From: Nannocystis bainbridge
Lineage (GTDB): Bacteria; Myxococcota_A; Polyangia; Nannocystales; Nannocystaceae
Direction of reading: 5' to 3'
Assembly (NCBI RefSeq): GCF_028368995.1
Contig: NZ_JAQNDL010000004.1
Span: forward strand, 544,001-608,000
Length of the DNA: 64,000 nt
Shown here: positions 6,148 to 50,503 of the stretch, piece after piece
Position numbering within the stretch: position 1 is the first letter of the stretch
Layout of the letters: every line of letters begins with the position of its first letter
The notes under the pieces: model-generated
What the model saw: only the letters and a program-made list of their open reading frames with translations
Databases searched by the model: none
Told to the model about the DNA's origin: nothing
Position numbers and translations under genes: made by a program

Positions 6148-7683
6148 TCACTTGCGGCGGCGGCGACGAAGCAGCGGCAGAAGCCAGGCCAGGGCCGGGC
6201 TGCCGGTGCGGCAGCCGCCGCAGGCGTCGTCGCCGGGCGGGTCGGACTCGCCGGCGGTGTCGGACTCGCCCGGATCGTCGCCGGTGCTCGAATCATCACC
6301 GGTGCTGTCGCCGCTGCTCTCGTCGCCGGTGGTCTCGGGCGCGGGCAGTGGTTCGACGCAGGCGAGCCCGTCGCGGGTGTCCGCGGCGCACAGGTGGGCG
6401 CGGATCGACATGTCCGAGAGGACAGGGTTGACGACGGCCAGCCAGTAGCCGCCGGCGGGCAGCTCGGCGAGGATCCGCGGCTCGGGTTCGGCGCCGTCCC
6501 AGGCGAGCGCCTCCGGCTCGACGGGGCCGTCGGCCGCGCCGCCGGCGACCGCCTGAAGCGTGAACTCGAGGCCGGGCGCGGGCGCGGCGAGGCCGAACCA
6601 CAGCGGGCCGCCGGGGTGGTCGAGGCGGTAGTAGCGGGCGGTCAGCGAGAAGAAGCGGTCGTCGTCGGCGAGCGGGAACACCTCCTGTTCGGCGGCCACG
6701 CCCGCGAGCTCGGCGGCGTACGGGTGGCTGTCGCGGGCGCCGGCGTGCTCGCCGGTGGCGAGGTTCCAGGCGGCGAACTCGAGCCAGGCCGGGCGCAGGT
6801 CGTCGGCGTGCGCCTGCAGCAGCCCGGCGATCGCGGCCGGCAGCTCGGCGGCGCCGCCGATCTGCAGCAGGGCGTCGACGAACTCGGGGCCGCGGCGGGC
6901 GATCAGGAAATCCCACCACAGCCCGGTGCCGTAAGCGAAGCTCGGCACCGGACCGGCGGGGGGCTTGAAGAGGGAGCGGCCGGTGTCGGCGAGGTAAGCA
7001 TCGCAGAAGCGCAGGAAATCGCGCGAGTCGGCGCGATAGGACCGCTCGGCCCACACGGCGGTGCCCTCGGAGAACCACACCGGGAGGTCGACGGCGTACG
7101 CGGCCTGGACGGCGTGGAACAGCTCGTGACTGACGACGGTGTCGACGGCCTCCGCGAGGTCGGCGTAGCCGTAGCCGGCGAAATCGTTCTCGAGCACGAG
7201 GTGGCCGGCGCAGGCGTCGGGGTCGCAAGCGTCGTGGCCGAAGTGGCCGTCGGCGGAGCCGCCGAAATCGACGAGGTAGATGTCGAGTGCCTCGCTGCCG
7301 CCGAGCAGGCCGAGGTCGTGCTCGGCCTCGCTGCGCGGGGGCCGGAGGTCAAAGGCGTCGCGGTAGAGCGCGAGCACGGCGGCGGCGGTGTCGGCGACGC
7401 GGACGACGTAGTCGGGCACGCCGTCGCCGTCGAGGTCGGCGAGCGGGACGACGCTGGGGCCGTCGGCGCTGTAGTGGACGCGCAGGCCGCCGCCCGGGTG
7501 ATCGAAAAAGACGAGGCTGTCCTTTGGGTCATACGGCCACAGGCCGCCCTCGGTCGGCCGCTCGGCGCGCGCGAGGCCCGGGACGAGCAGGGCGGCGAGC
7601 AGGGCGGCGAAGCACGCGGGGACCGGCGAGCGAGTGGGACGCGCGCGGCGCTTCGGCTCGACGGCGGAGTGATTTCCACGCAC
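6148..7683 (-). CDS. MXAN_6640-type secreted zinc metalloprotease with MYXO-CTERM-like tail (start uncertain)
   Basis: Signal peptide ...LARA; DLDGDGVPD; VSHELFHAVQ (HExxH) followed by WFSEGTAVW; acidic Ser/Thr linker, GGC, hydrophobic stretch and RRRRRK. Confidence 0.8.
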   Translation of the reverse strand: MRGNHSAVEPKRRARPTRSPVPACFAALLAALLVPGLARAERPTEGGLWPYDPKDSLVFFDHPGGGLRVHYSADGPSVVPLADLDGDGVPDYVVRVADTAAAVLALYRDAFDLRPPRSEAEHDLGLLGGSEALDIYLVDFGGSADGHFGHDACDPDACAGHLVLENDFAGYGYADLAEAVDTVVSHELFHAVQAAYAVDLPVWFSEGTAVWAERSYRADSRDFLRFCDAYLADTGRSLFKPPAGPVPSFAYGTGLWWDFLIARRGPEFVDALLQIGGAAELPAAIAGLLQAHADDLRPAWLEFAAWNLATGEHAGARDSHPYAAELAGVAAEQEVFPLADDDRFFSLTARYYRLDHPGGPLWFGLAAPAPGLEFTLQAVAGGAADGPVEPEALAWDGAEPEPRILAELPAGGYWLAVVNPVLSDMSIRAHLCAADTRDGLACVEPLPAPETTGDESSGDSTGDDSSTGDDPGESDTAGESDPPGDDACGGCRTGSPALAWLLPLLRRRRRK

Positions 7684-7880
7684 CCCGAGCGAGTGGCACG
7701 CGACGAGCGCGGGATGCTCGCGCGTCGACGCGAAGGCGAAGTGATTCCTGCGGCTCGTCGAATCGGCGCATGAGTGCTGCGCGGGCATCGTCGCTTCGAC
7801 GGGCGAGCGATGCCCGCGCATCGTCGCTGCTTCGGCCGATGGATCCGCCGTCGCCTCGCGCTCCGCGGCGTCGCGGCGCT

Positions 7881-8792
7881 TCACGGGAGGAAGCTCCAGC
7901 GCCAGGTCATGATCGCCGAGCCCGTGCCCATGGTGCCGTTCTCGTTGCAGTCGGCCTGGCCCTGTTCGTAGTAGGCCTCGATCACCAGCTTGACGGCGCG
8001 ACCGTCGGCGAGGCGGAGGGCGAACGGGAAGCCGGTGGTGGTGACGCAGCCGGTGTAGCCCCACCAGCTGGCCATGCGGTACGCGGGGCTGCCGGGCAGG
8101 CCGGAGCCGTCCTCTTGCAGGGTGCAGGCGTCGTCGTAGTAGCTCTCGGGCGCGAACTCGGCGTCGGGCGGGGCGGCGTCGAGGTCGGCGTACTGGCCGG
8201 CGGGCGCGGCGACGGTGACGCACGACGGGCCCGAGCTGCCGCTGTTGGCGCGGATGCCGAAGCGCTTGGCGGCGATGTCCCAGGCGCCGCTCTCGAGCGC
8301 CGCGACGTCGTCGAGGTCGACCCGCGCGAGGCCGTCGTCGGTGAAGCGGAGGTAGACCCACGGATTCATCGCCGCGGCCATGGTCCCGCCGGCGGAGGCG
8401 TCGAGGGTCGAGACCCAGTCGTCGCCGTCGCGCACGCTGGCGACCTCGGCGTCGCTGACCTTGTCGTCTTGCAGCGACAGGTCCTGGATCGAGGCGTCGA
8501 TGCAGGGGACGGGGGCCAGCGGGCAGGCGTTCGGGTCGACCGGCTCGTCGGTGGTGCCGGGGTCGGTGGTGGTCGGTGGCTCGGCGGTGGTGCCGGTCTC
8601 GGTCGTGGTGCCGGGTTCGGTGGCGGCCGAGCTCTCGTTGCCGGTCTCGGCAGTGCCGCCGGTCCCGGCATCGTTGCCGGTCGCGGCCTCGGTGCCGGTG
8701 CCGGTGTCGGCCGGATCGCCCTGGTCGCCGCAGGCGCCGACGAGCATGGCGAAGAGGATGAGGTGTAACTTGGGACAGGTCGTGAGGGACAT
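7881..8792 (-). CDS. HmuY-family heme-binding lipoprotein
   Basis: Lipobox LVGAC, Thr-rich stalk, WDIAAKRFGIRANSGSSGP, LRLADGRAVKLVIEAYY; last gene of the heme ABC operon. The frame is open upstream to GTG 8942. Confidence 0.8.
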   Translation of the reverse strand: MSLTTCPKLHLILFAMLVGACGDQGDPADTGTGTEAATGNDAGTGGTAETGNESSAATEPGTTTETGTTAEPPTTTDPGTTDEPVDPNACPLAPVPCIDASIQDLSLQDDKVSDAEVASVRDGDDWVSTLDASAGGTMAAAMNPWVYLRFTDDGLARVDLDDVAALESGAWDIAAKRFGIRANSGSSGPSCVTVAAPAGQYADLDAAPPDAEFAPESYYDDACTLQEDGSGLPGSPAYRMASWWGYTGCVTTTGFPFALRLADGRAVKLVIEAYYEQGQADCNENGTMGTGSAIMTWRWSFLP

Positions 8793-8938: not shown

Positions 8939-9748
8939 TCACGCGTGGAGGTCGTCGGGCGGGCGCGGGAGGACGGCGAAGCCGCGGCCCGCGGGCGCGG
9001 GTACGAGGTCGAAGCGGGCGCCGAAGCACGCCTCGAGGCGCTCGGGGGTGAGGACGTCGGCCGGTTCACCGTGGGCGACGCAGCGGCCGGCGTGGAGCAG
9101 GGCGAGGTCGTCGGCGCACTGGCTGGCGGCGCCGAGGTCGTGGAGGACGAGCACGAGGGCGGTGTCGGTGGCGCGCACGAACTGGCGCAGGCGCGCGAGG
9201 ATCCGGACGGCGTGGCCGGGGTCGAGGTTGGCGGTCGGCTCGTCGAGCAGGAGGTAGCGGCGCGGGTGCTCGGGGCTGGGCTCCCAGATCTGGGCGAGCA
9301 CCCGGGCCAGCTGGACGCGCTGCTGCTCGCCGCCGGACAGGGTCGGGGCGAGGCGCTCGGCGAGGTGGGCGACCTCGGCCAGCTCGAGCGCGGCCCAGGC
9401 GATGTCGCGGTCGCGCCGGGTCTCGCCGCGGCCGGGGTGCGGGAGGCGCCCCAGGGTAGCGACCTCGAGCGCGGTCAGCGGGAAGCGCAGGGCGCTGGCC
9501 TGCGGCAGGACGGCCCGCATGCGCGCGAGGGAGGTGGGGTGGACCTGGGCGAGCGGGCGACCGTCGAAGCGCAGCTCGCCGGCGCTGGGGGCCTGCTCGC
9601 CGGCCCAGACGCGCAGCAGGGTCGATTTTCCGGCTCCGCTGGGGCCGACGACGGCGAGCACGCGGGCGCACTCGGCCACGAGCGAGAGGTCGCGCAGGAG
9701 CTCGGCGCGCCCGACGGTGACGCCGATGCGCGAGGCGACCAGGCTCAC
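8939..9748 (-). CDS. hmuV: Heme ABC transporter ATP-binding protein
   Basis: GPSGAGKST, LSGGEQQRVQLARVLAQIW, LLLDEPTANLD. Confidence 0.9.
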   Translation of the reverse strand: MSLVASRIGVTVGRAELLRDLSLVAECARVLAVVGPSGAGKSTLLRVWAGEQAPSAGELRFDGRPLAQVHPTSLARMRAVLPQASALRFPLTALEVATLGRLPHPGRGETRRDRDIAWAALELAEVAHLAERLAPTLSGGEQQRVQLARVLAQIWEPSPEHPRRYLLLDEPTANLDPGHAVRILARLRQFVRATDTALVLVLHDLGAASQCADDLALLHAGRCVAHGEPADVLTPERLEACFGARFDLVPAPAGRGFAVLPRPPDDLHA

Positions 9749-10005
9749 GCGACCTCCGATTGGGGGGCGGCGAAGCGAGGGGGATCGACCTCGGCCCCGG
9801 CGCGCCCGGGCGCATGGTCTTCGGGACAGGTCGAGCCGGGCCGCGCGTCGTGCGAGCCCGGGACCGGGGCCGGGCGGGGCGTGCGCATCAGGATGGCCTT
9901 CGGGACAGGTGGGGGCGCGACCGGGGGCGATCGCCTGGGTTCGACCCTTGGTTGCGATCGTTCTTCATAAGTATTCAGAACCAAAGATCTTACGGCGCTG
10001 CTCAT
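9745..10005 (-). CDS. Putative 86-aa bridging ORF between hmuU and hmuV
   Basis: ATG overlaps the hmuU stop (ATGA) and its TGA overlaps the hmuV GTG (GTGA). Low complexity; two motif units. Confidence 0.35.
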   Translation of the reverse strand: MSSAVRSLVLNTYEERSQPRVEPRRSPPVAPPPVPKAILMRTPRPAPVPGSHDARPGSTCPEDHAPGRAGAEVDPPRFAAPQSEVA

Positions 10006-11054
10006 GCGAACTCCGAGGCGCGCACGCGGGCGAGCAGGGCGAGGAACACCGGGGCGCCGAGCAGCGAGGTCAGGATGCCGACGGGCAGCTCGGCGGGGGC
10101 GAGCATGGTGCGGGCGGCGGCGTCGGCGAACAGCAGCAGGGCGGCGCCGCCGAGCGCGGCCGCGGGGATGAGGACGCGATGGCGCGGACCGACGAGCCCG
10201 CGCAGCAGGTGCGGGACGACCAGACCGACGAAGCCGATGATGCCGGTGAAGGCGACGCACACGCCGACGGCCAGGGCGACCTCGGTGATCACGCGCCGGC
10301 GTAGGCGCTCGACGTCGACGCCGAGGTGGAACGCCTCGGCCTCGCCGAGCAAGAGGGCGTCGAGCTCACGCGCGCGGCGCCACAAGAGGACGCCGGACAG
10401 GCCGACGAGGGGCACGAGGATGAGGCCGACGCTGTGGGTGATGCCGCCGAGCCCGCCGAGCAGCCACAGGCTGAGGTCGCGCAGCTGGCGGTCGTCGGCG
10501 AGGTAGCCGAGCAGGCCGATCGCGGCGCTGGCCAGGGCGCTGACGGCGATGCCGGCGAGCAGCAGGCCGACCACCGAGGTCTGGCCGCGGACCCGGGCGA
10601 GGGCGTGCACGATCCACGTGGCAACGAGCCCGCCGAAAAAGGCGAAGACCGGCTGGGTGAGGCCGCCGGGGAGCACGGGCAAGGCGCGGCCGAGCACGAT
10701 GGCGAGGCCGGCCCCGAGCGCGGCGCCGCTGCTGACGCCGACGAGGCTCGGGTCGGCCAGCGGGTTGCGGAACAGGCCCTGCATGGCGCAGCCGGACACC
10801 GCCAGGCCGGCGCCGACGACCATGGCGCCGAGGGTCCGCGGCAGGCGCAGGGCGGTGAGGATGTAGCGCTCGCTCGGCTCGCAGGTCGGGTCGGGCGAGA
10901 CGAGGCAGCCGACCGCGTGCGCGAGGTCGAGCGGGGCGGCGCCGACGGCCAGCTGCAGCAGCGCGCCGAGGACGACGAGGACGGCGAGGCCCACGAGGAC
11001 CGGGCGCACGCGCCGGGCTGTCCCGGCGGACAGGCTCGCCCGGGCGGCGGTCAC
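10002..11054 (-). CDS. hmuU: Heme ABC transporter permease (FecCD family)
   Basis: LRLPRTLG, MQGLFRNPLADPSLVGVSSGA, GEAEAFHLG, IGFVGLVVPH, ELPVGILTSLLGAP. Confidence 0.92.
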   Translation of the reverse strand: MTAARASLSAGTARRVRPVLVGLAVLVVLGALLQLAVGAAPLDLAHAVGCLVSPDPTCEPSERYILTALRLPRTLGAMVVGAGLAVSGCAMQGLFRNPLADPSLVGVSSGAALGAGLAIVLGRALPVLPGGLTQPVFAFFGGLVATWIVHALARVRGQTSVVGLLLAGIAVSALASAAIGLLGYLADDRQLRDLSLWLLGGLGGITHSVGLILVPLVGLSGVLLWRRARELDALLLGEAEAFHLGVDVERLRRRVITEVALAVGVCVAFTGIIGFVGLVVPHLLRGLVGPRHRVLIPAAALGGAALLLFADAAARTMLAPAELPVGILTSLLGAPVFLALLARVRASEFA

Positions 11055-11230
11055 ACGGCCGCTCCTGCGCCTGCGGACATGTGCGAACAGACAGGGACCG
11101 CCGAGGACCTGCGCGAAGAGACAGGTGACCGGGACCTGCGCGAAGCGACAGGTGCTCGGCTGAGGCCGGGCCGGGCGCCGGAGCTGCGCGGAGCGACAGG
11201 CGCGCCGTCGCGGAGGCGGCACCGCGTCAC
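11051..11230 (-). CDS. Putative 59-aa bridging ORF between hmuT and hmuU
   Basis: GTGA overlap at both ends; motif units at 11066, 11080, 11110 and 11137. Confidence 0.35.
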   Translation of the reverse strand: MTRCRLRDGAPVAPRSSGARPGLSRAPVASRRSRSPVSSRRSSAVPVCSHMSAGAGAAV

Positions 11231-12129
11231 GGCGCCGCTCCTTCGCCGAGCTCGGGGTGGAGGGCGACCAGCAGCTCGCGCACGCCCTGGCCGATCCGCG
11301 GGCCGAAGCCGAGCAGCTTGAGGTCGTCGATGGCGACGATCCGCTGGTCGCGGCCGGCGGGCGTCTCGGCCAGGCCGGGGAGGGCGAGCAGGCCCGGGAC
11401 GCCGCCCATGCTCTCGAGGCCGCGGCTCGGCAGGACGACCACGTCGGGCGCGGCGGCGACCACCGCCTCGGCGCTCCACGGCTTCATGCCGGTGAGGGCG
11501 CCGCCCGCGTTCTCGCCAGCGGCGAGGCGCACCAGCTCGGCGCCGGCGGTCTCGCGCCCGGCCACCAGCAGGCGGCCCGGCCCGCGCGCGTAGACGAACA
11601 GGACCCGCGGCCGCGAGGTGACGCGAGCGCGCATGCGGTCGGCCTCGGCCAGGTCGGCCTCGAGCGTGGCGAGCACCGTGGCCGCCGCTTCGGGCCGGCC
11701 GAGCGCGGCGGCGATGGCCGTGATGTTGCCGCGCGCGGCGTCGAGGTTCTCGCCCGACGGCAGCAGCTCGAGGCGGATGCCGGCGCTGCGCAGCTGCTCG
11801 ACCGCGGTGGCCGGACCGGACGCGTCGCTGGCGAGCACCAGGTCCGGCCGGAGCCCGAGCACGCCCTCGGCGGAGAACTGCCGGTAGTAGCCGACCCGCG
11901 GGAGGGCAGCGGCGGTCTCGGGATAGAGGCTCGAGAGGTCGACGCCGACGACGCGATCCCCGGCCCCAAGCGCAAATACCGCTTCGGTGACCGAGCTGCC
12001 GAGGGTGACGATGCGCTGGGGAGCCGTGACCTCGGCCGTCGCGGGGGCTGGACCGTCGCCCGGGGCGGCGCAGGCCGGGAGCAGCACCGCAGCGAGGACG
12101 AGCGAGCGAAGGACGGTCGAGGCGAGCAT
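11227..12129 (-). CDS. hmuT: Heme ABC transporter substrate-binding lipoprotein
   Basis: Lipobox LPAC; RIVTLGSSVTEAVFALG; VGYYRQFSAEG (heme-ligand Tyr motif); LLGFGPR. Confidence 0.9.
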   Translation of the reverse strand: MLASTVLRSLVLAAVLLPACAAPGDGPAPATAEVTAPQRIVTLGSSVTEAVFALGAGDRVVGVDLSSLYPETAAALPRVGYYRQFSAEGVLGLRPDLVLASDASGPATAVEQLRSAGIRLELLPSGENLDAARGNITAIAAALGRPEAAATVLATLEADLAEADRMRARVTSRPRVLFVYARGPGRLLVAGRETAGAELVRLAAGENAGGALTGMKPWSAEAVVAAAPDVVVLPSRGLESMGGVPGLLALPGLAETPAGRDQRIVAIDDLKLLGFGPRIGQGVRELLVALHPELGEGAAP

Positions 12130-12187
12130 GCAGATCCAGACCGATGACACCGCGAGGCGCGCGGGCCAGAGTGGTGGCTACCACATT

Positions 12188-27953: not shown

Positions 27954-30548
27954 ATGAAGAAGCCTCCCCCCAGGTCGACCATCCCCAACTTCAACGACCT
28001 CACCGAAAAGAAGCTGCGCTCGCTCGGGCAGAAGCTGGACAAGCTCGTCGACGCCAACGCGTTCAAGCACAACAGCCTGCTGCGCAAGAGCGACAGCGAC
28101 TCGACCGCGCTGCTGTGGCACCTGGCCCGCCACGGGCTCGTGCTGCATTCGGTGATCTCGGTCGGCATGTTCCGGACGCTCAGCGAGAACACCCGCGGGA
28201 TCCCGGCGGACGACATCCTCACCGTGCTGCGCCGCGTGCCCGACGACATGGGCGCGCTCGACAAGGGCCAGGGGCGCTCCTGGCCGTCGTACACGCCCGG
28301 AATCTCGACGGAGGTCGATACGCTGATCACCGCGGCGTACGTGGCCGACCCGGCGGCCGTGACGGCGCTGCGCGACGAGCTGCCGGAGAACATGCAGCTG
28401 GCGATCGACTTCGTCCGCGGCCGCGCCGGCGAGACGATCCCGCCGGCGTCGAGCGTGAAGATCCTGCGTCACCTCGTGACGACCCACCTGGTGCGCGGTC
28501 TGGCGACCGGCTGGGACTGCCCGTGGATCGTCGAGGGGCGACTGGTCGAGTTCCGTCTGAATTCGACGGCGCAGGTGGAGCTGCTGGCCGCCCGGTTCGG
28601 CTCGTCGTGGGCCGAGGAGGCGCACGCGTGGATCCTGCCGCGCGTCAACGAGTTCCGCGCGCGCGCCGGCGACATCGGCCGCAACGGCGTGGCCGGGCTG
28701 CGGCTGGCGACGCTGGCGGACGTGATCTATCTGTTCGGCGACGGCTGGTGGGACCCGCGCTCGCTGCTGGAAGTGCTCGACGCCCGCGACGATGCGCCGG
28801 CGGCCCTGTTCGCGGCGGCGCTCAAGCTGCGCGCCGAGGGCACTTCGGCGTTCAAGATCACGGTGCCGCAGGTGCGGCCGGAGCCGCCGCAGAAGCCGTC
28901 CGCCGGCGATGAGGACGCGGACGACGGCGACGACGGCGACGACGATTACGCCGGTGACGGCGACGAGTACGACGAGTACGGCGGCGGCGGCGGCGGCGGC
29001 GAGGTCGATGCGGACGCGGAGCCGGAGATCGAGGAGGCGAGCGGCGACGAGGAGCGGGTAGTGTTGCTGGCGACGCTGCTGACGGCGGTGGGCATCGAGC
29101 GCGCGCACGCGAGTGGGCAGGCGATCCCGCTCGAGGTGGACGCGGTGATCGACCTCGACAAGGTCTACGACAGCGAGCCGCAGCTGATCGCGCGGCTGCG
29201 CGGGGTGATGGCGATCCTCGGGCCGGCGCGCACGCACGCGATCCTGCGCAGGCAGCTGGCCAAGGAGTTCTGGTTCGGCAAGGTCAGCGCGTTCCTCGAC
29301 GTCCACTTCGACCGCGCGCTGGTCGAGGAGGCGTTCGCCCGCCTCGCCGCTGGCAAGTACGCGGCCGACGCCGGGCTGCTCGGGTTCTGCACGCCGGCGC
29401 TGGTGCCGTTCGTGGTCCAGGCGCAGGCGCAGGCGAGGACGCCCGAGATCAAGGCGATGTTCGGCGAGGCGATCCTTTACATCCTGGCCCGCGCGGCGGC
29501 AGGCGGCGAGACGTGGGACCCGGCGCTCGAGCAGCACCTGCAGCTCGACCAGATCCGGTTCGACTACGGCGGCCCCAAGGTCGACCCGGTGCTGGCGCTG
29601 CTCGACAAGCTGCCGCTGGCGCGGTGGGTCAAGGTCATCGAGGCCAACCGCGAGCGCTGCGCCGAGGAGCCGGTGCGGCTGCTCAAGCTGCTGCGGACCG
29701 ACATGCCGCCTGCACTCCTGGCCGAGATCTTGAAGGACGCGGTGGCCAGGCAACAGAAGCTCGGTTCCGGCGGGTTGGGCGACCGCCTGCGCAAGTTCGG
29801 GCCCGAGATCGTGACGCCGTTGCTGCAGGCGATCGGCGACGCGCCGGCCACCAACACGCTGATGAAGGATCTCGATCGCTCGCTCGACTACCTGGTGTTC
29901 ACGGCGGTAAAGGAGGGGCTCGGCAAGGCGATCGAGACGCCGGAGCAGGAGCTGCGGCGGCTGGCGGCCAGCGTGCCGGGAGAGACGATCCGGATCTATC
30001 GCCTGCGTCGCGGCCAGGGCGAGCCTTCGGCGGACGCGGTGGCGCGGATCGGCGGGGCGCCGCGCGGGGTGGTGACGCCGCCGGTCGATCGCAAGGAGCC
30101 GATGACGCACGTCATCACGCTCGACCTGGCGCAGCTGCCCGAGCTGGCGGCGCGTCGCCCGGGCGCGCGTTCGCTGTCGCTCTACTTGCCCGACCCCGAC
30201 ACCGGTGAGCGGCACCGCCACGGCGCGCTGGTGTGGACGAGCGAGGCGGAGCTGGGCGGCGCGCCGGGTTCGACCGCGGACGCGCGGCCGCTGGTGGTCG
30301 AGGCGTTCGACGTGCCGGCGCAGATCTTCGGCGGCGAGGAGCTCACGGGTCCGGCCAAGCGGGTACGCGGGATCGTCTACGGCTCGCCGGGATACGTCGG
30401 CGGCGGCCCGCTGTGGCTGCAGGACGGCGAGCCAGGGGTCGATCCGCGCTTCGTGTTCCAATTTGACGAGAGCCTGTGCGGCATCAACCTCGGCGACTCG
30501 GGGGTGATGTACGTGTTCGAGGGAGACATCGACTGGCAGTGCCATTGA
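27954..30548 (+). CDS. Large hypothetical protein with a C-terminal DUF1963/YwqG-like domain
   Basis: RIGGAP...MTHVITLDLAQLP...YVGGGPLWLQ...FVFQFDE...NLGDSGVMYVF...WQCH. Confidence 0.78.
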   Translation: MKKPPPRSTIPNFNDLTEKKLRSLGQKLDKLVDANAFKHNSLLRKSDSDSTALLWHLARHGLVLHSVISVGMFRTLSENTRGIPADDILTVLRRVPDDMGALDKGQGRSWPSYTPGISTEVDTLITAAYVADPAAVTALRDELPENMQLAIDFVRGRAGETIPPASSVKILRHLVTTHLVRGLATGWDCPWIVEGRLVEFRLNSTAQVELLAARFGSSWAEEAHAWILPRVNEFRARAGDIGRNGVAGLRLATLADVIYLFGDGWWDPRSLLEVLDARDDAPAALFAAALKLRAEGTSAFKITVPQVRPEPPQKPSAGDEDADDGDDGDDDYAGDGDEYDEYGGGGGGGEVDADAEPEIEEASGDEERVVLLATLLTAVGIERAHASGQAIPLEVDAVIDLDKVYDSEPQLIARLRGVMAILGPARTHAILRRQLAKEFWFGKVSAFLDVHFDRALVEEAFARLAAGKYAADAGLLGFCTPALVPFVVQAQAQARTPEIKAMFGEAILYILARAAAGGETWDPALEQHLQLDQIRFDYGGPKVDPVLALLDKLPLARWVKVIEANRERCAEEPVRLLKLLRTDMPPALLAEILKDAVARQQKLGSGGLGDRLRKFGPEIVTPLLQAIGDAPATNTLMKDLDRSLDYLVFTAVKEGLGKAIETPEQELRRLAASVPGETIRIYRLRRGQGEPSADAVARIGGAPRGVVTPPVDRKEPMTHVITLDLAQLPELAARRPGARSLSLYLPDPDTGERHRHGALVWTSEAELGGAPGSTADARPLVVEAFDVPAQIFGGEELTGPAKRVRGIVYGSPGYVGGGPLWLQDGEPGVDPRFVFQFDESLCGINLGDSGVMYVFEGDIDWQCH

Positions 30549-30604: not shown

Positions 30605-32140
30605 ATGCACCATGTGAAGCGGTTGGGATGGATGGTCGCGGTCGTGGCCGCGTGTGGAGATTCGAGCGCCAGCACCGATGCTCTGCTGGAGACGACGACA
30701 TCGACATCGACATCGACCACGACGATGACGACGGACCCGGCGACCACGGACGAGCCGGGCACGACCGTCGCGCCGACGACGACGGACCCGACAACGACCT
30801 CGACTTCGACTTCGACCTCGACGACAGAGCCGGGTACGACGACGTCATCGACGACGGAGCCGGATACGACGACGACCTCCTCGACGACGGAGTCGGACAC
30901 GACGACGACGACGACGGACACGACGACGGACACGACGACCGGGACCGACACGAGCACTTCGACGACGACCGGGACCGACGATGACGCCGACGACGACGGC
31001 GTGGCGGACGCGGACGACAACTGCGTCGACGTCGCCAACGCGGGCCAGGAGGACGGCGACGAGGACGGGGCCGGCGACGCGTGTGACAACTGTGCCGGCG
31101 ATCCGAACCCCGATCAGGGCGACGGGGACGGGGACGGAGTCGGCGACCTTTGCGACGAGGAGGCGATCAACAACGGCGACGTGCTCTACGTGCCCGAGGG
31201 GACATCGATCGATCTCGGCGGGTCGCACTGCTACGGGCTGTGGGTGAAGATCGACGGCACGGTCACGGTGCCGGCGTACGCGAACAACCCGAACACCGGC
31301 ACGTTGACGCTCAAGTCGCAGACGATCCGGATCGGCGCGACCGGCAAGATCGTGGCCGACAACGCGGGCATGGCCGGCGGCACGCCGTCGCAGCAGAACA
31401 CGGTCGGCGGGTTCGCCGGGCAGGGCGTGGGTGCGGGCTGCGGCGGCGGTCCGGGCAGCTCGGTCGGGCAAGGCGGCTCGGGCGCGGGCTACGGCGGCGT
31501 CGGCGGCGCGCCCGGGAACACCTACGCGATGAACAACGCCTGCAACAGCTGCAGCGAGCCGACCATCTCGCACTGCGGCGGCGCGGTCGGCACGGTCGTC
31601 GGCACCGACATGGGCGAGGACGTGGCGCTCGGCGTCGGCGGCGGCGCGGGCGGCAACTCGAGCGGCTGCAGCAACGCCGGCGGTCGCGGCGGTCGCGGCG
31701 GCGGCTCGGTGCTGCTGCTGGCCAACGACTGGGTGCAGGTCGACGGCTCGGTGAGCGCGCGCGGCGAGGAGCCCCCGCCCGACAATTCGGCGTGCGGTTA
31801 TCGACCCGGGGGCGGCGGCGGCTCGGGCGGCGGCATCGTCGTCGCCGCGGACGAGGTGCTCGGCGCGGGCACGCTCGACGCCCGCGGCGGCAACGGCGGA
31901 CCGGCGCTCGGCGAGACGCAGAGCCAGACGTGGGCGTGGGGCGGCGGCGGCGGCGGCGGCGGCCGGATCAAGGTGTTCTCGCCGGCCGACGCGTTCAGCG
32001 GCATGCGCCGCGTCGACGCCGGGGCCGGCGGGACCGCGCCGGCCACCGGGTCGAGCGTCGCCGGCCTCGCGGGCGCGAGCGGCAAGACGGCGGCGGTCGC
32101 CACCATCCCGGCGAACTACGACGACCTGACCTGCCAGTGA
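30605..32140 (+). CDS. Lipoprotein with Thr stalk, thrombospondin type-3 repeats and a Gly-rich domain
   Basis: VVAAC lipobox; DADDDGVADADDNCVDVANAGQEDGDEDGAGDACD repeats; GGGGSGG segments. Confidence 0.85.
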   Translation: MHHVKRLGWMVAVVAACGDSSASTDALLETTTSTSTSTTTMTTDPATTDEPGTTVAPTTTDPTTTSTSTSTSTTEPGTTTSSTTEPDTTTTSSTTESDTTTTTTDTTTDTTTGTDTSTSTTTGTDDDADDDGVADADDNCVDVANAGQEDGDEDGAGDACDNCAGDPNPDQGDGDGDGVGDLCDEEAINNGDVLYVPEGTSIDLGGSHCYGLWVKIDGTVTVPAYANNPNTGTLTLKSQTIRIGATGKIVADNAGMAGGTPSQQNTVGGFAGQGVGAGCGGGPGSSVGQGGSGAGYGGVGGAPGNTYAMNNACNSCSEPTISHCGGAVGTVVGTDMGEDVALGVGGGAGGNSSGCSNAGGRGGRGGGSVLLLANDWVQVDGSVSARGEEPPPDNSACGYRPGGGGGSGGGIVVAADEVLGAGTLDARGGNGGPALGETQSQTWAWGGGGGGGGRIKVFSPADAFSGMRRVDAGAGGTAPATGSSVAGLAGASGKTAAVATIPANYDDLTCQ

Positions 32141-32253: not shown

Positions 32254-33753
32254 TCACATCGGAAGGATGCTGAGCAGCTGGCCGCCCGTCATGTCCGAGT
32301 AGACGTAGTGGCTGCCGGGGATCTGGACCTGCTGCATGCCGGGGACGTTGTCGGGGTCGATCTTCCAGGCCCAGCCCTCCTGATCGACCAGCCACACGAA
32401 CTTCTCGGCGTCGACGCTGAGGCCGATCGCGGTCGAGCAGGGGTTGGTGTTGTGGCTGGCGACCAGCGTCTTGGTCTGGCGGTCGATCTGCAGCAGCGCG
32501 CACGGGCCGTTGGAGGCGACCCACACGTGGTCGGCGTCGGCCGTGATGCCGCGGAAGCAGGCGTTGGTGCCGGGCACCGAGGTGTACTGCTCGGTGTCGG
32601 CGTCGAAGGTGCTGACCGGGCCGGAGCAGCCGGCGAACCACGGGTTGCCGTCGCCGTCGACGGTGAAGCCGTACGACTGGATGTTCGCCGGCGGGGTCCA
32701 GCGCGACACGGTGATCGGGTTCTGGTCGGTGTTGATGCGCAGGAACTCGCCGCGCAGGCCGCCGAACCACGGGCGGAACTCGGGGTCGAGCGCGCCGCCG
32801 TAGGGGGCGTAGCCCTGGCCGTTCCAGCCGGGCACCTGGACCGTCTCCTCGACGGTGCCGGTCTCGCCGTCGACGCGCACGAAGTGAGCGGCGCCGCCGG
32901 GCGCGTTGTAGCCGAGCCACACCTTGGGCTGGACGTACTTGCAGAGATCGTAGTCCCAGGTGCCGGGCGTCCAGGTGACGCCGCGCGGGCCGTTGGAGAA
33001 GCCGCCGGCGAACGGCCACTGGTGCGTCCAGAGCAGACACTCGTCGGCCAGCCACGGGCGGACGTCGTTCTTGTTCTGCGAGGTGTCGATCATGCCGTTG
33101 CCGTTCTTGTCGACGCAGTCGGCGATGTCGGCGGCGAACATGGAGGAGCTGCCGGTCTGGCGGTTGTTGACGACGACGAAGCGGCCGTCGGCGCTGACGG
33201 CGGTGCGCGAGGGGCTGTCGCCGCCGGGGCCGGTCTTGTAGCGGGCGACCTCGACGAGCGTCTGCGTGTTGATCTTGGCGACGTCGCTGAGGTCCTGGCT
33301 GGGGACCCAGATGAAGCTCTTCTCGACCGGGCCCATGCCGACGCCGTCGCCGGGCTCGCACACCGGGTTGTTGCCGGTGGTGCCGGTGGTGGTGGTGCCC
33401 TCGGTGGTGGTGGTGCCCTCGGTGGTGGTCGTCGAGGTGGTGCTCGTCGTCGTCGCGGTCGTGGTCGTGGTGGTGTCAGGACCGGTCGAGGTCGGCGAGA
33501 TGGTGGTCGTCGGCGAGGTGGTCGAAGTCGTCGTCGTCATGCCGTCGGACTCCGAGCCCGAGGCCATGGTGGGGCTGGTCGAGTCGGTGCCGGTCGGCAC
33601 CGTCGCCGTGGTCCCGGTCGGCGGGTCCACCGTCGAACCCTGGGTCATGCCGGCCGACTCGGTGCCGGTTGCCGTCCCCGAGTCTCCGCACGCCGTGAGC
33701 CCCACCGCCAGGGGCGCCGCCAACCACCACTTGCCAACGCTTGTCTTCTGCAT
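32254..33753 (-). CDS. Thr-stalk lipoprotein with a Vgb/beta-propeller-like domain
   Basis: GLTAC lipobox; SPSRTAVS, CVDKNGNGMIDTS, YVYSDMTG (myxobacterial family signature). Confidence 0.85.
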   Translation of the reverse strand: MQKTSVGKWWLAAPLAVGLTACGDSGTATGTESAGMTQGSTVDPPTGTTATVPTGTDSTSPTMASGSESDGMTTTTSTTSPTTTISPTSTGPDTTTTTTATTTSTTSTTTTEGTTTTEGTTTTGTTGNNPVCEPGDGVGMGPVEKSFIWVPSQDLSDVAKINTQTLVEVARYKTGPGGDSPSRTAVSADGRFVVVNNRQTGSSSMFAADIADCVDKNGNGMIDTSQNKNDVRPWLADECLLWTHQWPFAGGFSNGPRGVTWTPGTWDYDLCKYVQPKVWLGYNAPGGAAHFVRVDGETGTVEETVQVPGWNGQGYAPYGGALDPEFRPWFGGLRGEFLRINTDQNPITVSRWTPPANIQSYGFTVDGDGNPWFAGCSGPVSTFDADTEQYTSVPGTNACFRGITADADHVWVASNGPCALLQIDRQTKTLVASHNTNPCSTAIGLSVDAEKFVWLVDQEGWAWKIDPDNVPGMQQVQIPGSHYVYSDMTGGQLLSILPM

Positions 33754-34793: not shown

Positions 34794-35933
34794 ATGCGAA
34801 CGACTTACCTCTTGTTGGCCGCCGCGCTGCTCCCTGCCTGCAACGGCGGCGCGAGCGACTCCACCGCCGATGCGTCGGCCGGGACGGGCATCACCGGCGT
34901 GACGGGGCAGGGGCTCACGAGCACCAGCGACGCCACGAGCGACGGCGGCACGGCGGGGCCGACCAGCGAGGGCAGCGGCTCGGCGAGCGAGAGCGACAGC
35001 GAGACGCCGACGACCGGGACGCCGGGCACCAGCTCGAGCACCACCGACGAGGCGACCACGGCGACGACGACGACGACGACCGACGCGACGAGCACGACGT
35101 CGACCACGACCGCCGCGACCACCGAGCAGACGAGCACGACCGGCGTGATCGAGGAGAAGTGCCCGTGCCCCGACCTCGAGGTGCCGCTCGACGACGGGAT
35201 CTTCGTGCTCTCGAAGACGGCGCAGCTGTGGAAGTACTTCCCGCAGACGCACGATTTCGAGCTGCTGGGCCCGGCGACCTGCGGGCTGGCGCCTTCGACG
35301 TTCTCGATGGGGGTCGACCGCGAGGGCTTCGCGTGGGTGCAGTACAGCGACATGAAGCTGCGCAAGATCGACGTGACCGACACCACGCAGTGCAGCGACC
35401 CGGGCTTCGTGCCGATGCAGAACGGGATCGAGAATTTCGGGATGGCGTTCGTGTCGAACAGCGCCGACGACAAGTGCGACCGGATCTACGGCAACCACTA
35501 CAACGGGGTCGCCAACGGCGACATGGTCAGCGAGTTCTTCAGCGTCGACCCGGATACGCTCGCGGTGGCGCCGCACGGGCTCAGCGACTACGGGCTGGCC
35601 GAAGTGACAGGCACGGGCGACGGCCGGGCGTTCCTGTTCGCCGGGCCCGATCCGTCGGTGCTCGTGGAGGTCGACAAGGCGACCGGCGCGACCCTGGACG
35701 TGACGCCGCTGCCGGGGGTCAAGACCGGCGGCGGCTTCGCGTTCGCGTTCTTCGCCGGCGACTTCTACTTCTTCACCGACAAGGAGTCCGACAGCACCAG
35801 CGAGGTGACCCACCTCGACTACGACGACAGCGACAACAACGGCCAGCAAGACCTCAAGGTCGTGGTCGAGGACGCGCCGCTGCGGATCGTCGGCGCCGGG
35901 GTGTCGACCTGCGCGCCGCTCATCCCGCAGTGA
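34794..35933 (+). CDS. Thr/Ser-stalk lipoprotein (myxobacterial family)
   Basis: LLPAC lipobox; FSMGVDREG, TGTGDGR, FAFAFFAGDFYFF, IVGAGVSTCAP. Confidence 0.85.
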   Translation: MRTTYLLLAAALLPACNGGASDSTADASAGTGITGVTGQGLTSTSDATSDGGTAGPTSEGSGSASESDSETPTTGTPGTSSSTTDEATTATTTTTTDATSTTSTTTAATTEQTSTTGVIEEKCPCPDLEVPLDDGIFVLSKTAQLWKYFPQTHDFELLGPATCGLAPSTFSMGVDREGFAWVQYSDMKLRKIDVTDTTQCSDPGFVPMQNGIENFGMAFVSNSADDKCDRIYGNHYNGVANGDMVSEFFSVDPDTLAVAPHGLSDYGLAEVTGTGDGRAFLFAGPDPSVLVEVDKATGATLDVTPLPGVKTGGGFAFAFFAGDFYFFTDKESDSTSEVTHLDYDDSDNNGQQDLKVVVEDAPLRIVGAGVSTCAPLIPQ

Positions 35934-35945
35934 CGCAGCGGCGCC

Positions 35946-36030
35946 TGTCTCTCGGGTCATATCCTCGGGGTCATGCAGGCTGATCCTTGAGGGTGTCTTA
36001 AAGGGCATGTCCGAAGGGACATGCCCGAAC
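35946..36030. repeat. Cluster of 14-bp units
   Basis: Units at 35946, 35960, 35994 and 36008, plus a partial unit at 36022. Confidence 0.8.
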
Positions 36031-36499
36031 TCACGCGCTCGGTCCGGGTCAGCGAGCTGGCGAGCGTGCGGCGCCGACCGCCGGCGCCGGCCTCGGCGAG
36101 CCAGCGGGCGCGACCGTCCGCCTCGCGCGGGGCATCACCGCGTCGGCGGCCGCTCGCGCGGCGTCGCTGCGATGGCGCCGGACCGTGCCGGCCGATCGCC
36201 GGCAGGCCGGCGCGGGGCTTGGAGGAGGCGCTACCTCTTTGCAGTGTCGACCTGCAGGGGTCGCTGCTCGACGGCGGGCGGGTCGGCGATCCCTCGAGCA
36301 GAGTTCGGTCACGGGGTCTCGAAGCCGCGCGTGTGTGCAGCGGCCTGCGCGCGGCCCAGCGGCGGAGACGGACGCCGCAGGCCTGGTCGCCAGAACTCCA
36401 GCTTCGCCGCCGGCCGCACGGTTGAGTTTTCTTACCCCCACCCACTCCCCCGGAGTAGGCTTGGCGACGCATAACAGTCGCCGAGCGCACGAGGTACCG

Positions 36500-38290
36500 A
36501 TGAGCGAGACCAAGACGAAACACCAAGAGCTGCAACGCTTTGTCGACGAGTGGGCGGCGCGGTGCAAGCCGGACCGCGTCGAGTGGTGCGACGGCTCGGA
36601 CGCCGAGTACGATCGGATGCTGGGGCTGCTGATCGAGAGCGGCGCCGCCATCCGCCTCAACCCCGAGAAGCGACCCAACAGCGTCCTGGTGCGCTCGGAC
36701 CCGCGCGACGTGGCGCGTGTCGAGAGCCGGACGTTCATCTGCAGCGCGTCGCGGGAGGGCGCGGGCCCGACCAATAATTGGGAAGACCCGCTGGTGATGC
36801 GCAAGAAGCTGAACGGGCTCTACGACGGCTGCATGCGCGGGCGCACCATGTACGTGGTGCCGTTCTGCATGGGCCCGCTGGGCTCGCCGATCGCCCAGAT
36901 CGGCGTGCAGCTGAGCGACTCGCCGTACGTGGTCGCCAACATGAAGATCATGACCCGCATGGGCAAGGCGGTGCTCGACGTGCTCGGCGAGGACGGCCGC
37001 TTCGTCAAGGCGGTCCACTCGGTCGGTCAGCCGCTCGAGCCCGGCGACGCCGGCCCCGCGTGGCCGTGCAACCCCGAGAACACGTACATCACGCACTTCC
37101 CCGAGAAGCGCACGATCCTGTCTTTCGGCAGCGGCTACGGCGGCAATGCGCTGCTCGGCAAGAAGTGCTTCGCGCTCCGCATCGCCTCGGCGATGGCCCG
37201 CGACGAGGGCTGGCTGGCCGAGCACATGCTCATCCTCGGCGTCGAGGGCCCCGACGGCAAGAAGACCTACGTGACCGCGGCGTTCCCCAGCGCGTGCGGC
37301 AAGACCAACTTCGCCATGCTCATCCCGCCCAAGGAGATGACCGGCTGGAAGGTCACCTGCGTAGGCGACGACATCGCCTGGCTCAAGCCGGACGCCGAGG
37401 GCAACCTGCGCGCGATCAACCCGGAGGCCGGGTTCTTCGGCGTGGCCCCGGGCACGTCGATGGAGACCAACCCCAACGCGATGATCTCGTGCGCGCGCGA
37501 CTCGATCTTCACCAACGTCGCGCTGACCGACGACGGCGACGTGTGGTGGGAGGGCATGACGAAGGAGACGCCGAAGCACCTGGTCGATTGGACAGGCAAG
37601 GACTGGACCCCGGACTGCGGCCGCAACGCGGCCCACCCGAACGCCCGCTTCACCGCGCCGGCCCGCAACTGCCCGGTCATCGACCCCGAGTGGGAGAACC
37701 CCGCCGGCGTGCCGATCCGCGCCATCATCTTCGGCGGCCGGCGCATGAACGACGTGCCGCTGGTCTACCAGGCGTTCAACTGGTCGCACGGCGTGTACAT
37801 CGGCGCGACCATGGGCTCGGAGCAGACGGCCGCGGCCGAGGGCCAGGTCGGGGCGCTGCGCCGCGATCCGATGGCGATGCTGCCGTTCTGCGGCTACAAC
37901 ATGGGCGACTACTTCCGCCACTGGCTGTCGATGGCCAAGCGCGTGAAGGAGCCGCCGCGGATCTTCCACGTCAACTGGTTCCGCAAGCAGGACGGCAAGT
38001 TCATGTGGCCGGGCTTCGGCCAGAACATGCGCGTGCTGCGGTGGGTGGTCGAGCGCTCGCGCGGCCAGGCCATCGGCGTCGAGTCGCCGCTCGGGTGGAT
38101 CCCGCACTACCACGACATCGACTGGCGCGGCCTCGACTTCTCCGAGAAGCAGTGGGACGAGCTGATGGGCTACGCCCGCGACCGCGTCAAGAAGCAGACG
38201 CTGTCGCACGAGGAGCTGTTCCTCGAGCTGTCCGAGGCGCTGCCGAAGACGATGATCTTCGAGCGCGAGCTGCTGATCAGCCGCCTGTGA
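36500..38290 (+). CDS. pckG: Phosphoenolpyruvate carboxykinase (GTP)
   Basis: [58 protein letters not shown]. Confidence 0.97.
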
Positions 38291-48089: not shown

Positions 48090-49385
48090 TCAGCGGAGCG
48101 CGGCGAGGCGGGCTTGCAGGCGGTCGAGGCCGAGGTTGCCGGGGCCGCCGAGGCTGACGCGGGCCTGCAGGCTGGCCTCGGGCGACCTGTCCTTCAGGTC
48201 ATGCATCTCGGCCGCGGCCTGGCGGTAGGCGTCGCGAAACGGCACGCCGGCGCGGGCCAGCTCGACGGCGCGGTCGGTGGCGTGCAGCTCGCCGTCGATG
48301 GCGGCGCGCATGCGGGCGCGGTCGAGCTCGAGCGTACCCACGAGCGCGGGCACGAGGGCGAGGCCGGCGAGGCCGCGGGTGAACGCGCGCAGGGTCGGGG
48401 CCTTGGTGGCCTGGAGGTCGCGGTGGTAGCCGCTCGGCAGCGACAGCAGCGACGACAGCTCGGACATCGCGCCCTCGGTGACGGAGGGCACGGCGCGCAG
48501 CAGCTCGACGACGTCCGGGTTGCGCTTGTTGGGCATGATCGACGAGCCGGTGGTGTAGGCGTCGGGCAGGCGCACGAACGCGAACTCGGCGGTCGAGAAC
48601 AGCGACAGGTCCCAGGCCAGGCGGCGGACGTCGAGCAGCGCCTGGTGCAGCGCCTGCACCGCCAGCAGCTCGAGCTTGCCGCGGCTGTTCTGGGCGTAGA
48701 TCGGCGAGACCTGCACGCGCGAGAAGCCGAGCTCGTGGGCGACGCCGTCGCGGTCGAGCGGGAGGTTGACGCCGTAGCCGGCGGCGGTGCCGAGCGGGCT
48801 CGAGTCGAGGGTGTGGGCGGTGGCGCGCGCGGTCTCGGCGTCGTCGAGGAAGGCCTCGGCGTGGCCGGCGAGCAGGGCGGCGAGCGACGACGGCACGGCC
48901 CGCTGCAAGTGGGTGTAGCCGGGCAGGGCGACGTCCTGGGTGGCCTCGGCGCGCTGCAGGCAGGCGTCGGCGCAGTCGAGGCAGCGCGCGCGCAGGGCCC
49001 CGAGGGCGTCCTTGAGCCACAGGCGCATGGCGACGAGGATCTGGTCGTTGCGGCTGCGGCCGGTGTGGACCTTGCGGCCGACGTCGCCGAGGCGCTCGCC
49101 GAGGTACCACTCGATGGCGGAGTGGCCGTCCTCGAAGCGGTCGTCGAGCACGAACTCGCCGCTGCGCACGGCCTCGGCGAACGCTTCGAGGCCCGCCACG
49201 AGGGCCTCGGCCTCGCTCGTGGCGAGCACGGCGATGCGCTGCAGGCCGTGGACGTGGGCGATCGAGGCGCGGACGTCGTGGAGGATCAGCTGGCGATCGA
49301 GGACGACGTCATCGCCGGCGCAGAACGCCTGGGCGGCGGCGTCGAGGGCGGCCTGGCCCTTGTCCCATAGCGGTCGGGTGCTCAT
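48090..49385 (-). CDS. argH: Argininosuccinate lyase
   Basis: HTGRSRNDQ, PGYTHLQRA, GSSIMPNKRNPD. Confidence 0.96.
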   Translation of the reverse strand: MSTRPLWDKGQAALDAAAQAFCAGDDVVLDRQLILHDVRASIAHVHGLQRIAVLATSEAEALVAGLEAFAEAVRSGEFVLDDRFEDGHSAIEWYLGERLGDVGRKVHTGRSRNDQILVAMRLWLKDALGALRARCLDCADACLQRAEATQDVALPGYTHLQRAVPSSLAALLAGHAEAFLDDAETARATAHTLDSSPLGTAAGYGVNLPLDRDGVAHELGFSRVQVSPIYAQNSRGKLELLAVQALHQALLDVRRLAWDLSLFSTAEFAFVRLPDAYTTGSSIMPNKRNPDVVELLRAVPSVTEGAMSELSSLLSLPSGYHRDLQATKAPTLRAFTRGLAGLALVPALVGTLELDRARMRAAIDGELHATDRAVELARAGVPFRDAYRQAAAEMHDLKDRSPEASLQARVSLGGPGNLGLDRLQARLAALR

Positions 49386-49442
49386 GCGGTGCTCCTGGCG
49401 GCGAGGCGGTGGTCTGGTCTTCGGGACAGGTGCGGCGCGCGC

Positions 49443-50396: not shown

Positions 50397-50503
50397 GGCC
50401 GGCCTCCGTGAACAGGGTCGAAAGGACATGTCCACAGGAGCATGTCGTCATGGACATGCCCGCTGGGGCATGTCTGAAGGGGCATGGCGACGGGCGGGGT
50501 CAC
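50393..50503 (-). CDS. Putative 36-aa bridging ORF between argB and argC, largely made of five 14-bp units (50415-50484)
   Basis: GTG overlaps the argB stop and its TGA overlaps the argC ATG. Confidence 0.35.
   Translation of the reverse strand: MTPPVAMPLQTCPSGHVHDDMLLWTCPFDPVHGGRP

Follow-up and report, generated by a model that had tools for sequence, protein, structure and literature searches.

Doubly coupled filler ORFs at split operon junctions of Nannocystis as candidate relays for ribosomes

How can neighbouring genes of an operon remain translationally coupled, when a hundred or more nucleotides of repeat-rich DNA lie between them? The question is raised by a 64,000-nt stretch of Nannocystis bainbridge DNA (G000:C4:544001-608000, in the following called the window), which originates from a genome of 11.05 Mb with a GC content of 71.5% (G000). 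At three junctions of the window, hmuT/hmuU and hmuU/hmuV at the hmu locus and argAB/argC at the arg locus, the spacer is crossed by a short open reading frame (ORF) that begins in the stop codon of the upstream gene and ends in the start codon of the downstream gene. An initial annotation had proposed that originally overlapping genes were pushed apart by duplication of their junction together with motif DNA, and that coupling is relayed by a filler peptide. Based on the comparison with five further Nannocystis genomes, it is probable that these bridges are disposable filler ORFs which pass ribosomes across the split operon junctions.

All three mini-ORFs were found where they had first been placed, with NTGA overlaps at both ends (coordinates refer to the window; genes and bridges of both loci lie on the minus strand). 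Bridge ORF 1 (11051-11230, 59 codons) joins the hmuT-like gene for a periplasmic binding protein (11227-12150 as the longest ORF, with a start at 12087 according to our hexamer caller; Pfam Peripla_BP_2, E 2.2e-28) to the hmuU-like gene for a FecCD permease (10002-11054; FecCD, E 7.5e-88). The final 15 nt of hmuT comprise GGAG followed by GTGA, and the stop GTGA at 11230-11227 shares its TG with the GTG of the bridge, the TGA of which (11053-11051) in turn shares TG with the GTG start of hmuU at 11054. Bridge ORF 2 (9745-10005, 86 codons), like bridge 1 read directly from the sequence, joins hmuU to the hmuV-like gene for an ABC ATPase (8939-9748; ABC_tran, E 6.6e-23). Here, the hmuU stop ATGA at 10005-10002 is also the ATG start of the bridge, and the bridge TGA (9747-9745) overlaps the GTG start of hmuV at 9748. 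Bridge ORF 3 (50393-50503, 36 codons) runs from a GTGA (50503) to an ATGA (50393-50396), from a gene at 50500-51828 that ends in GGAGG-N5-GTGA to argC at 49443-50396, which is of the N-acetyl-gamma-glutamyl-phosphate reductase type (Semialdhyde_dh and C-terminal domains). The identities of hmuT, hmuU, hmuV and argC were confirmed by Pfam, but the gene upstream of argC, previously called argB, contains AA_kinase and NAT domains and is a bifunctional ArgA/B-type gene.

The two ends of each bridge resemble each other. At hmuT/hmuU, the upstream junction copy with its Shine-Dalgarno (SD) site and GTGA (11226-11242) is identical in 14 of 17 positions to the downstream copy with SD and GTGA (11050-11066), which is the working start of hmuU. 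At hmuU/hmuV, 15 of 17 positions agree between the upstream copy (SD and ATGA, 10000-10016) and the downstream copy at the start of hmuV (SD and GTGA, 9743-9759). Both ends of the arg bridge carry CGGAGGC-N5-RTGA. These repeats, as well as the equal spacing of CGGAGGC, were exactly as first described, and each of the six junction copies belonging to the three bridges has GGAG 5-7 nt upstream. The motif units that had been noted inside the bridges were also recovered, with four in bridge 1 (units of the spacer spanning 11083-11201), two CCTGTCCCGAAG-type units in bridge 2, which begins with an AT-rich tract, and a palindrome array with a period of 14 nt at 50423-50458, which bridge 3 crosses. 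The gap between argC and argH (49385-49443) had been named as an exception to the pattern, and it contains no bridge in any of the six genomes.

The orthologous loci of five genomes of the same genus (G001, G003, G005, G007 and G010) were compared with those of G000. In the order G000, G001, G003, G005, G007 and G010, the hmuT/hmuU spacers comprise 172, 154, 148, 76, 346 and 358 nt, the hmuU/hmuV spacers 253, 718, 136, 718, 694 and 453 nt, and the arg spacers 103, 394, 115, 220, 235 and 303 nt. The spacers are poorly alignable among the genomes, and a coupled ORF linkage was found in 18 of 18 instances. In 16 of them a single ORF leads from the NTG at the upstream stop (a TAATG overlap in G007) to the TGA at the downstream start. 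The remaining two, both in G010, consist of two ORFs joined via a further ATGA, and the chain lands on the start; one of these is the 303-nt arg bridge, which is a single ORF in the other five genomes. The pair of junction copies at hmuT/hmuU is present in all six genomes. By this comparison, and by the frame control over the whole genome (see below), the pattern exceeds chance.

Two other readings of the hmu spacers were tried and rejected. A start of hmuU further upstream, with the spacer as an N-terminal extension, was ruled out by G001 and G005, in which the RTGA start is the sole in-frame start candidate and no in-frame start exists upstream. A gene on the opposite strand of the hmuU/hmuV spacer was ruled out, since the antisense frames contain stops and show no coding signal.

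In the hmuU/hmuV spacers of 694-718 nt (G001, G005 and G007), the bridge frame contains no stop, compared to 0-10 stops in each of the other five frames, and a fraction of 0.025-0.061 of dinucleotide shuffles is open. Alignment of G005 with G007 showed five larger indels of 15, 3, 24, 3 and 9 nt and one adjacent +1/-1 pair in the well-aligned core, and the small gaps that are not multiples of three gather in the poorly aligned AT-rich ends. The mismatch rates at codon positions 1, 2 and 3 were 0.19, 0.18 and 0.21 in the bridge, compared to 0.014, 0.006 and 0.094 in hmuU. Since the indels are multiples of three and the mismatches are distributed evenly over the codon positions, the constraint lies on the frame and not on the peptide.

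Junctions that are still polymorphic indicate how such bridges come about. Seven junctions were followed through the six Nannocystis genomes. For six of them, some species have stop and start overlapping directly or nearly so, and at four of these six the junction (SD+NTGA) occurs in other species as one to about seven tandem copies, separated by spacer DNA. Each copy takes in SD and NTGA together with the codons that close the upstream gene and those that open the downstream one. A 64-nt duplication at junction 6948 (L060) is present in G000 only, junction 9187 (L063) carries a single additional copy in three species and about seven copies in G007, and junction 7063 (L059) is present in triple copy in G010, while an older, motif-filled insert (L053) has ends that are still identical in 17 of 20 positions. 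Over the whole genome, at least 17 of 24 identical bases between the two junctions were determined for 8 of 101 bridges, compared to 0.2% of permuted pairs and none of the 38 phase-0 controls (for the phases see below). In a genome of another genus (G011), hmuU and hmuV overlap directly by ATGA, with 7 nt between hmuT and hmuU; four of five more distant loci with the order hmuU to hmuV show an overlap or a gap of a few nucleotides. Altogether, the polymorphic junctions, the identity of the 24-mers and the overlaps in other genera support the proposed origin of the bridges by junction duplication plus motif DNA.

Some details of these junctions may be added. At the G007 junction orthologous to L063, a segment of about 40-55 nt with SD, ATGA/ATGG and the first downstream codons is repeated like a minisatellite of start sites, and some copies have lost the TGA, which interrupts the chain at this point. 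In the first codons of hmuU, at its 5' end (11000-11040, minus strand), the motif forms a small and perfect hairpin, CTGTCC-N4-GGACAG, and the genes for TonB and other downstream proteins likewise begin with motif-like or duplicated codons. The motif may be a part of the segment that is duplicated along with the junction. The hmuV of G007 aligns to the protein of the window as two separate segments, residues 1-69 and residues 71-264, a split that suggests a frameshift.

A tandem duplication over an overlap gives an in-frame fusion, with the beginning of the downstream gene attached to the end of the upstream one, one third of the time. Such a fusion is open and doubly coupled from the outset, and the bridges could therefore be neutral by-products, which are young and undecayed and whose translation is not selected. 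The recent duplications at junctions 6948, 9187 and 7063 have exactly such a structure, the near-identical 24-mers persist in the 8 bridges mentioned, and many GC-rich spacers would remain open by chance. However, beyond about 17 nt the hmu and arg spacers have nothing in common with the flanking genes, and many indels distinguish them among the species, yet the phase is kept in all 18 instances. The bridges diverge by about 19% at all codon positions, which is twice the value of the third position in hmuU, without a stop in 230-240 codons, and the strength of the SD sites is enriched at bridges.

Further evidence on this point comes from a wider comparison of ten regions (nine beyond the hmu/arg window), which were picked on matches in G000 and matched to the five relatives, with neighbouring junctions of the same regions as controls; its statistics are uncorrected for shared ancestry. 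For 18 bridged junctions of G000, the relatives with spacers of at least 25 nt showed 44 bridged and 23 unbridged instances, and the other instances comprised 9 direct overlaps, 3 short spacers and 11 that were not evaluable. The 44 consist of 37 single ORFs and 7 two-ORF chains among 67 instances, whereas the neutral explanation predicts one third in phase. At 66 neighbouring unbridged junctions, 8 instances were bridged and 234 unbridged (Fisher p 3.6e-28, uncorrected for phylogeny). The hmuU/hmuV junction of G007 was automatically scored as unbridged, as hmuV aligns in two frames, although it is bridged on manual chaining; the tallies keep the automatic score. The difference in length from G000 was a multiple of three in 39 of 66 cases of bridged families, compared to 72 of 202 controls. 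The present data thus point toward a frame kept across independent indels, and a purely neutral origin appears unlikely.

The bridged pairs are operon-like and comprise subunits of ABC transporters, ExbD and TonB, and arg genes. The ExbD-TonB junction contains single bridges throughout (181, 733, 310, 262 and 289 nt). A pair of SBP-permease and permease shows bridges of 196, 301, 145 and 133 nt in addition to two junctions at which the genes overlap directly or abut (-4 and -1 nt), and an AlgX-like/rubrerythrin-like pair shows single ORFs of 313, 262, 76 and 451 nt and a chain of 1065 nt. In these three families, the N-termini of the downstream proteins are nearly identical and the bridge peptides are unrelated across species. 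A different situation was observed on the plus strand at 35933-36500, where both ends carry NTGA in each of the six genomes, but the phases are random and the bridge frame is interrupted by 1-3 stops. Accordingly, junction context alone does not imply a bridge.

The conserved integrity of the ORFs, together with their start codons and SD sites, could also be explained by real, fast-evolving small proteins, such as accessory subunits or disordered linkers, that overlap their neighbours. Conserved tracts exist in the form of PVPKAI/PVLKAI, encoded by the CCTGTCC unit, and of the AT-rich tract at the N-terminus, but they coincide with the DNA repeat units. The peptide of the hmuU/hmuV bridge is 56% identical between G005 and G007, where hmuU differs by less than 2% at codon positions 1 and 2, and the mismatches are flat over the codon. 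The GC content at third codon positions (GC3) is low in the bridges, with 0.64-0.81 compared to 0.95-0.97 in hmuU, and no frame has a coding composition. Their hexamer score is negative (-0.5 to -1.0 per codon, compared to +0.75 for genes), a Pfam search of the bridge ORFs gave no match, and the lengths range across species from 47 to 241 codons at hmuU/hmuV and from 27 to 121 codons at hmuT/hmuU. Functional small proteins are therefore a very improbable explanation.

For a count over the whole genome, a set of 8065 genes (82% coding) was obtained for G000 with a self-trained hexamer model rather than a standard annotator; it gave the same gene ends as the initial annotation. The set contains 3595 tandem pairs with spacers of 30-1500 nt. 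To count as a bridge, an ORF had to start in an overlap with the upstream stop, stay open throughout and end in a stop that overlaps the called start of the downstream gene. Accordingly, 103 doubly coupled single bridges were found, compared to 63 expected under independence and to 39 and 72 in the wrong-phase controls (phase 0 and phase 2; binomial p 1.4e-5). The count of phase 2 is inflated, because the "bridge" frame of this phase is the downstream gene's own frame. Of the 103 bridges, 99 showed a non-coding hexamer score. The excess over a frame-randomised null, for which the initial annotation had asked, is thus real and modest in size (103 versus 39-63); it amounts to roughly 40-60 junctions, and about half of the candidates from a single genome are chance matches. 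When the landing was relaxed and dinucleotide shuffles were used, 244 versus 195 single ORFs and 85 versus 46 chains of two were obtained, a result that is not relied on, since the null may under-model the tetranucleotide content. Chance, with open frames and GTGA/ATGA common at 71.5% GC, three cases picked post hoc, 40-60% of one-genome candidates expected at random and no overall bias in phase or excess of open frames among tandem pairs, is already refuted for the three named junctions by the 18 of 18 instances compared to 8 of 242 at controls and by the frame control, and has next to no probability left.

The corresponding null results were obtained over the 3595 tandem pairs, for which the spacer phase showed no overall bias, and over phase-1 pairs without junction context, for which stop-free frames showed no overall excess. 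An example of the inflated phase 2 is the junction at 7683-7881 on the minus strand of the window. The caller leaves a gap of 197 nt there in G000, but in each of the five relatives the genes overlap directly by GTGA/ATGA; the downstream frame is open, and the true start in G000 is probably the overlapping one.

The repeat units inside the spacers are built on the half-sites CCTGTCC and CATGTCC, which are often palindromic (GGACATGTCC) and often arrayed, with periods of 27-48 nt in the hmuT/hmuU spacers and of 14 or 28 nt elsewhere in the window. The exact 10-mer GGACATGTCC is present in 956 copies in the 11.05 Mb, compared to about 10 expected from the base composition by hand calculation. 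Per 10 kb, ACATGTCC was found 19.0 times in convergent, 6.7 times in tandem and 2.4 times in divergent spacers and 0.64 times in coding sequence. Based on copy number and distribution, the motif is classified as a REP-like palindrome family. Bridged spacers contain 6.5 half-sites per kb, compared to 2.7 in other tandem spacers, and the motif has no preferred reading frame within the bridges. No match to the RAYT transposase (Y1 transposase, PF01797) was obtained in G000, which is 90.5% complete; a control search matched 6 of 14 reference genomes.

A further difference concerns the SD sites. Upstream of bridge starts, the mean energy of the duplex with the anti-SD was -4.98 kcal/mol, compared to -2.85 at stops that contain an NTG and face a convergent gene, -3.28 for unbridged pairs in tandem and -2.99 in the phase-0 controls (p 2e-9, 1e-6 and 7e-4, respectively). 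Direct-overlap starts showed a mean of -6.59 kcal/mol, so that the bridges take an intermediate position, as expected from a mixture of half real and half chance cases. Other signals were not observed. The hmu spacers contain neither an intrinsic terminator nor a sigma-70-like promoter, an Rfam search of the spacers gave no match at E<=1, and the RNA structure of the hmuT/hmuU spacer is unexceptional (z = -0.67).

The hmuU/hmuV spacers of all six genomes open with an AT-rich tract of 40-70 nt, which is very unusual for the genome (9955-10000, minus strand, in the window). In G001 and G010 it holds the inverted repeat ATGTCG-N11-CGACAT, and toward the 3' end another AT-rich tract occurs in several of the spacers. 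The tracts remain free of stops in the bridge frame, and they could serve as operator, as internal promoter or as a site for an RNase.

Several points weigh against a relay of ribosomes by selected filler ORFs. The genome-wide excess is modest and depends on our own gene caller and its choice of starts, and several matches in G000 are clearly due to chance, as for example at 2299-2334 of the window. In nulls based on deletions, about 49 bridges were expected after a deletion of 2 nt, but about 84 after a deletion of 1 nt; we attribute the latter value to miscalled direct overlaps, which is an argument and not a proof. Chains of two or more ORFs with strict landing showed no excess over the genome (35 versus about 32, and 11 versus about 15). 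In the hmuT/hmuU spacers, a fraction of 0.43-0.94 of the shuffles is also stop-free, and since an open frame is expected anyway in the spacers with the highest GC content, the evidence there rests on the phase. Of the instances in relatives, 23 of 67 are unbridged, and the five relatives are not independent and their regions were chosen on matches in G000. The SD and NTGA with which the upstream gene ends could persist simply as the code for its C-terminus, and the excess of C over G, as would be expected of rut-like sites, is no different in bridged spacers than in others.

In spite of these points, relay by filler ORFs remains the probable explanation, and as far as can be judged from the sequences the initial proposal holds: the geometry is kept in 18 of 18 instances, the peptide is unconstrained and the SD sites are enriched. 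The course of events would be as follows. In the ancestor, hmuT/hmuU, hmuU/hmuV and argAB/argC would have overlapped by 4 nt in an NTGA, comprising the downstream start (NTG) and the upstream stop (TGA), with the SD located within the last part of the upstream gene. A short stretch across the junction would have been duplicated in tandem, and local duplication together with arrays of the REP-like palindrome (core GGACATGTCC / CCTGTCC) would have filled and resized the gap between the copies. Inserts would have survived only if they read as one ORF or as a chain of NTGA-linked ORFs. A ribosome finishing the upstream gene would restart at the overlapping NTG, translate the filler, stop at the TGA over the downstream start and reinitiate there, and the downstream gene would be kept translationally coupled to the upstream gene. 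The selected trait would be the uninterrupted translation, and the peptide would be irrelevant. A probable additional gain is that 100-700 nt of operon mRNA would not be ribosome-free and thus not open to Rho or nucleases. Since coupling reportedly needs overlaps or very short gaps and Rho uses untranslated RNA, a doubly coupled filler ORF would solve both problems. The actual translation of the fillers, the reinitiation and the fitness reason are what we infer from this architecture.

Repeats also affect coding sequence in the vicinity. The gene for an M20 peptidase (argE-like; 51842-52996, minus strand) contains a motif unit inside its coding sequence, and in the orthologue of G007 the motif is expanded by about 185 nt into a frame-shifting array, so that the gene aligns in two frames, which could be a broken gene or an assembly error. 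A "979-nt bridge" of G007 at the junction at 52996 was accordingly ruled out, as it consists of the array expansion and frameshift inside this gene. At 28920-29002, 30691-30998, 33376-33530 and 35045-35110, the window contains long triplet repeats and tandem repeats of 9-33 nt, rich in GAC, ACG and GGT, which presumably code for repetitive acidic or glycine-rich protein segments.

As a tentative extension, which we consider possible but somewhat doubtful, the bridges could form a genus-wide class of some 50-60 "conveyor" ORFs per genome, in which REP-like hairpins would provoke the tandem duplication of overlapping junctions, only in-frame products would persist, and the fillers would drift neutrally in sequence and length under strict selection of the frame for reinitiation and shielding against Rho. 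If this is true, the loci would serve as natural experiments in which selection acting on translation itself can be seen in isolation, and as a standing source of de novo peptides, and the interspersed repetitive units of mycobacteria (MIRUs) would be a special case of a general route by which overlapping genes are separated. Translational coupling is taken to require genes that overlap or almost touch one another, and a disposable, doubly coupled ORF suggests a way to maintain it over hundreds of bases. As the fillers resemble non-coding DNA in all respects except the frame, they offer a comparative signature of selection for translating rather than for a protein. This signature bears on the reading of pervasive small-ORF translation, on Rho polarity in operons and on the invasion of operons by REPs or MIRUs without breakage. 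In practical terms, bridge ORFs should not be annotated as proteins, nor their spacers as promoters or terminators, and the design could be copied for synthetic operons.

No account of such bridges, whether from Nannocystis or from other myxobacteria, turned up in our search of the literature, and the sole precedent met was the MIRUs. The single links are familiar. Translational coupling by termination-reinitiation at ATGA/TGATG overlaps is described in PMC6728339, PMC10666635 and PMC12548453, and it needs overlaps or very short distances according to PMC10666635. Each link of a bridge is a classical overlap of 4 nt or 1 nt (NTGA or TGATG/TAATG) with the SD in the upstream ORF, as in the 516 direct -4 overlaps of G000, which have strong SD sites. 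In contrast to the classical case, two overlaps are set in series around a non-functional ORF of 27-241 codons, by which the bridges would extend coupling across distances where reinitiation alone reportedly fails. That Rho loads on untranslated RNA is stated in PMC12548453, and the same source, citing Shell et al. 2015 in its section 11, describes short upstream ORFs in 5' leaders that "deliver" ribosomes to a coupled downstream gene. In both leader ORFs and the proposed bridges the function is the act of translation and not the product, but leader ORFs are coupled at their 3' end only, whereas the bridges lie inside operons and are coupled at both ends.

The filler DNA resembles the REP/BIME elements of enterobacteria and pseudomonads (PMC3733652 and PMC12306157). 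Like these, it contains short, GC-rich, imperfect palindromes in hundreds of copies, which are often arrayed and extragenic, concentrated 3' of genes and between cistrons and rare in divergent promoter regions. Unlike these, it is not accompanied by a detected RAYT in G000. REPs for which a coupled reading frame is maintained are not known to us.

The closest resemblance is to the MIRUs, which are reviewed, after Supply et al. 1997 (Mol Microbiol 26:991), in section 11 of PMC12548453 and whose copy number varies among strains, with units of 77 bp and 53 bp in senX3-regX3 (PMC4213456). In both cases, repeat DNA lies between co-oriented genes of an operon, and an internal ORF ends in a -4 overlap with the downstream start. 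Both are polymorphic in length among close relatives, which in Nannocystis ranges from 76 to 718 nt at the named junctions, with direct overlaps next to inserts at six others. The ORFs of MIRUs also overlap the upstream stop. However, MIRUs are a dispersed unit of fixed length (53/77 bp classes), whereas the Nannocystis spacers have no such unit and share only palindromic cores of 8-10 nt and their own junction copies, the remaining filler being locus-specific. The origin of the Nannocystis bridges would be the tandem duplication of the host's own junction and not the insertion of a mobile unit. Furthermore, MIRUs belong to the Actinomycetota and Nannocystis to the Myxococcota, and the evidence in Nannocystis differs in kind, since it consists of a frame that is conserved across species together with a peptide that evolves neutrally.

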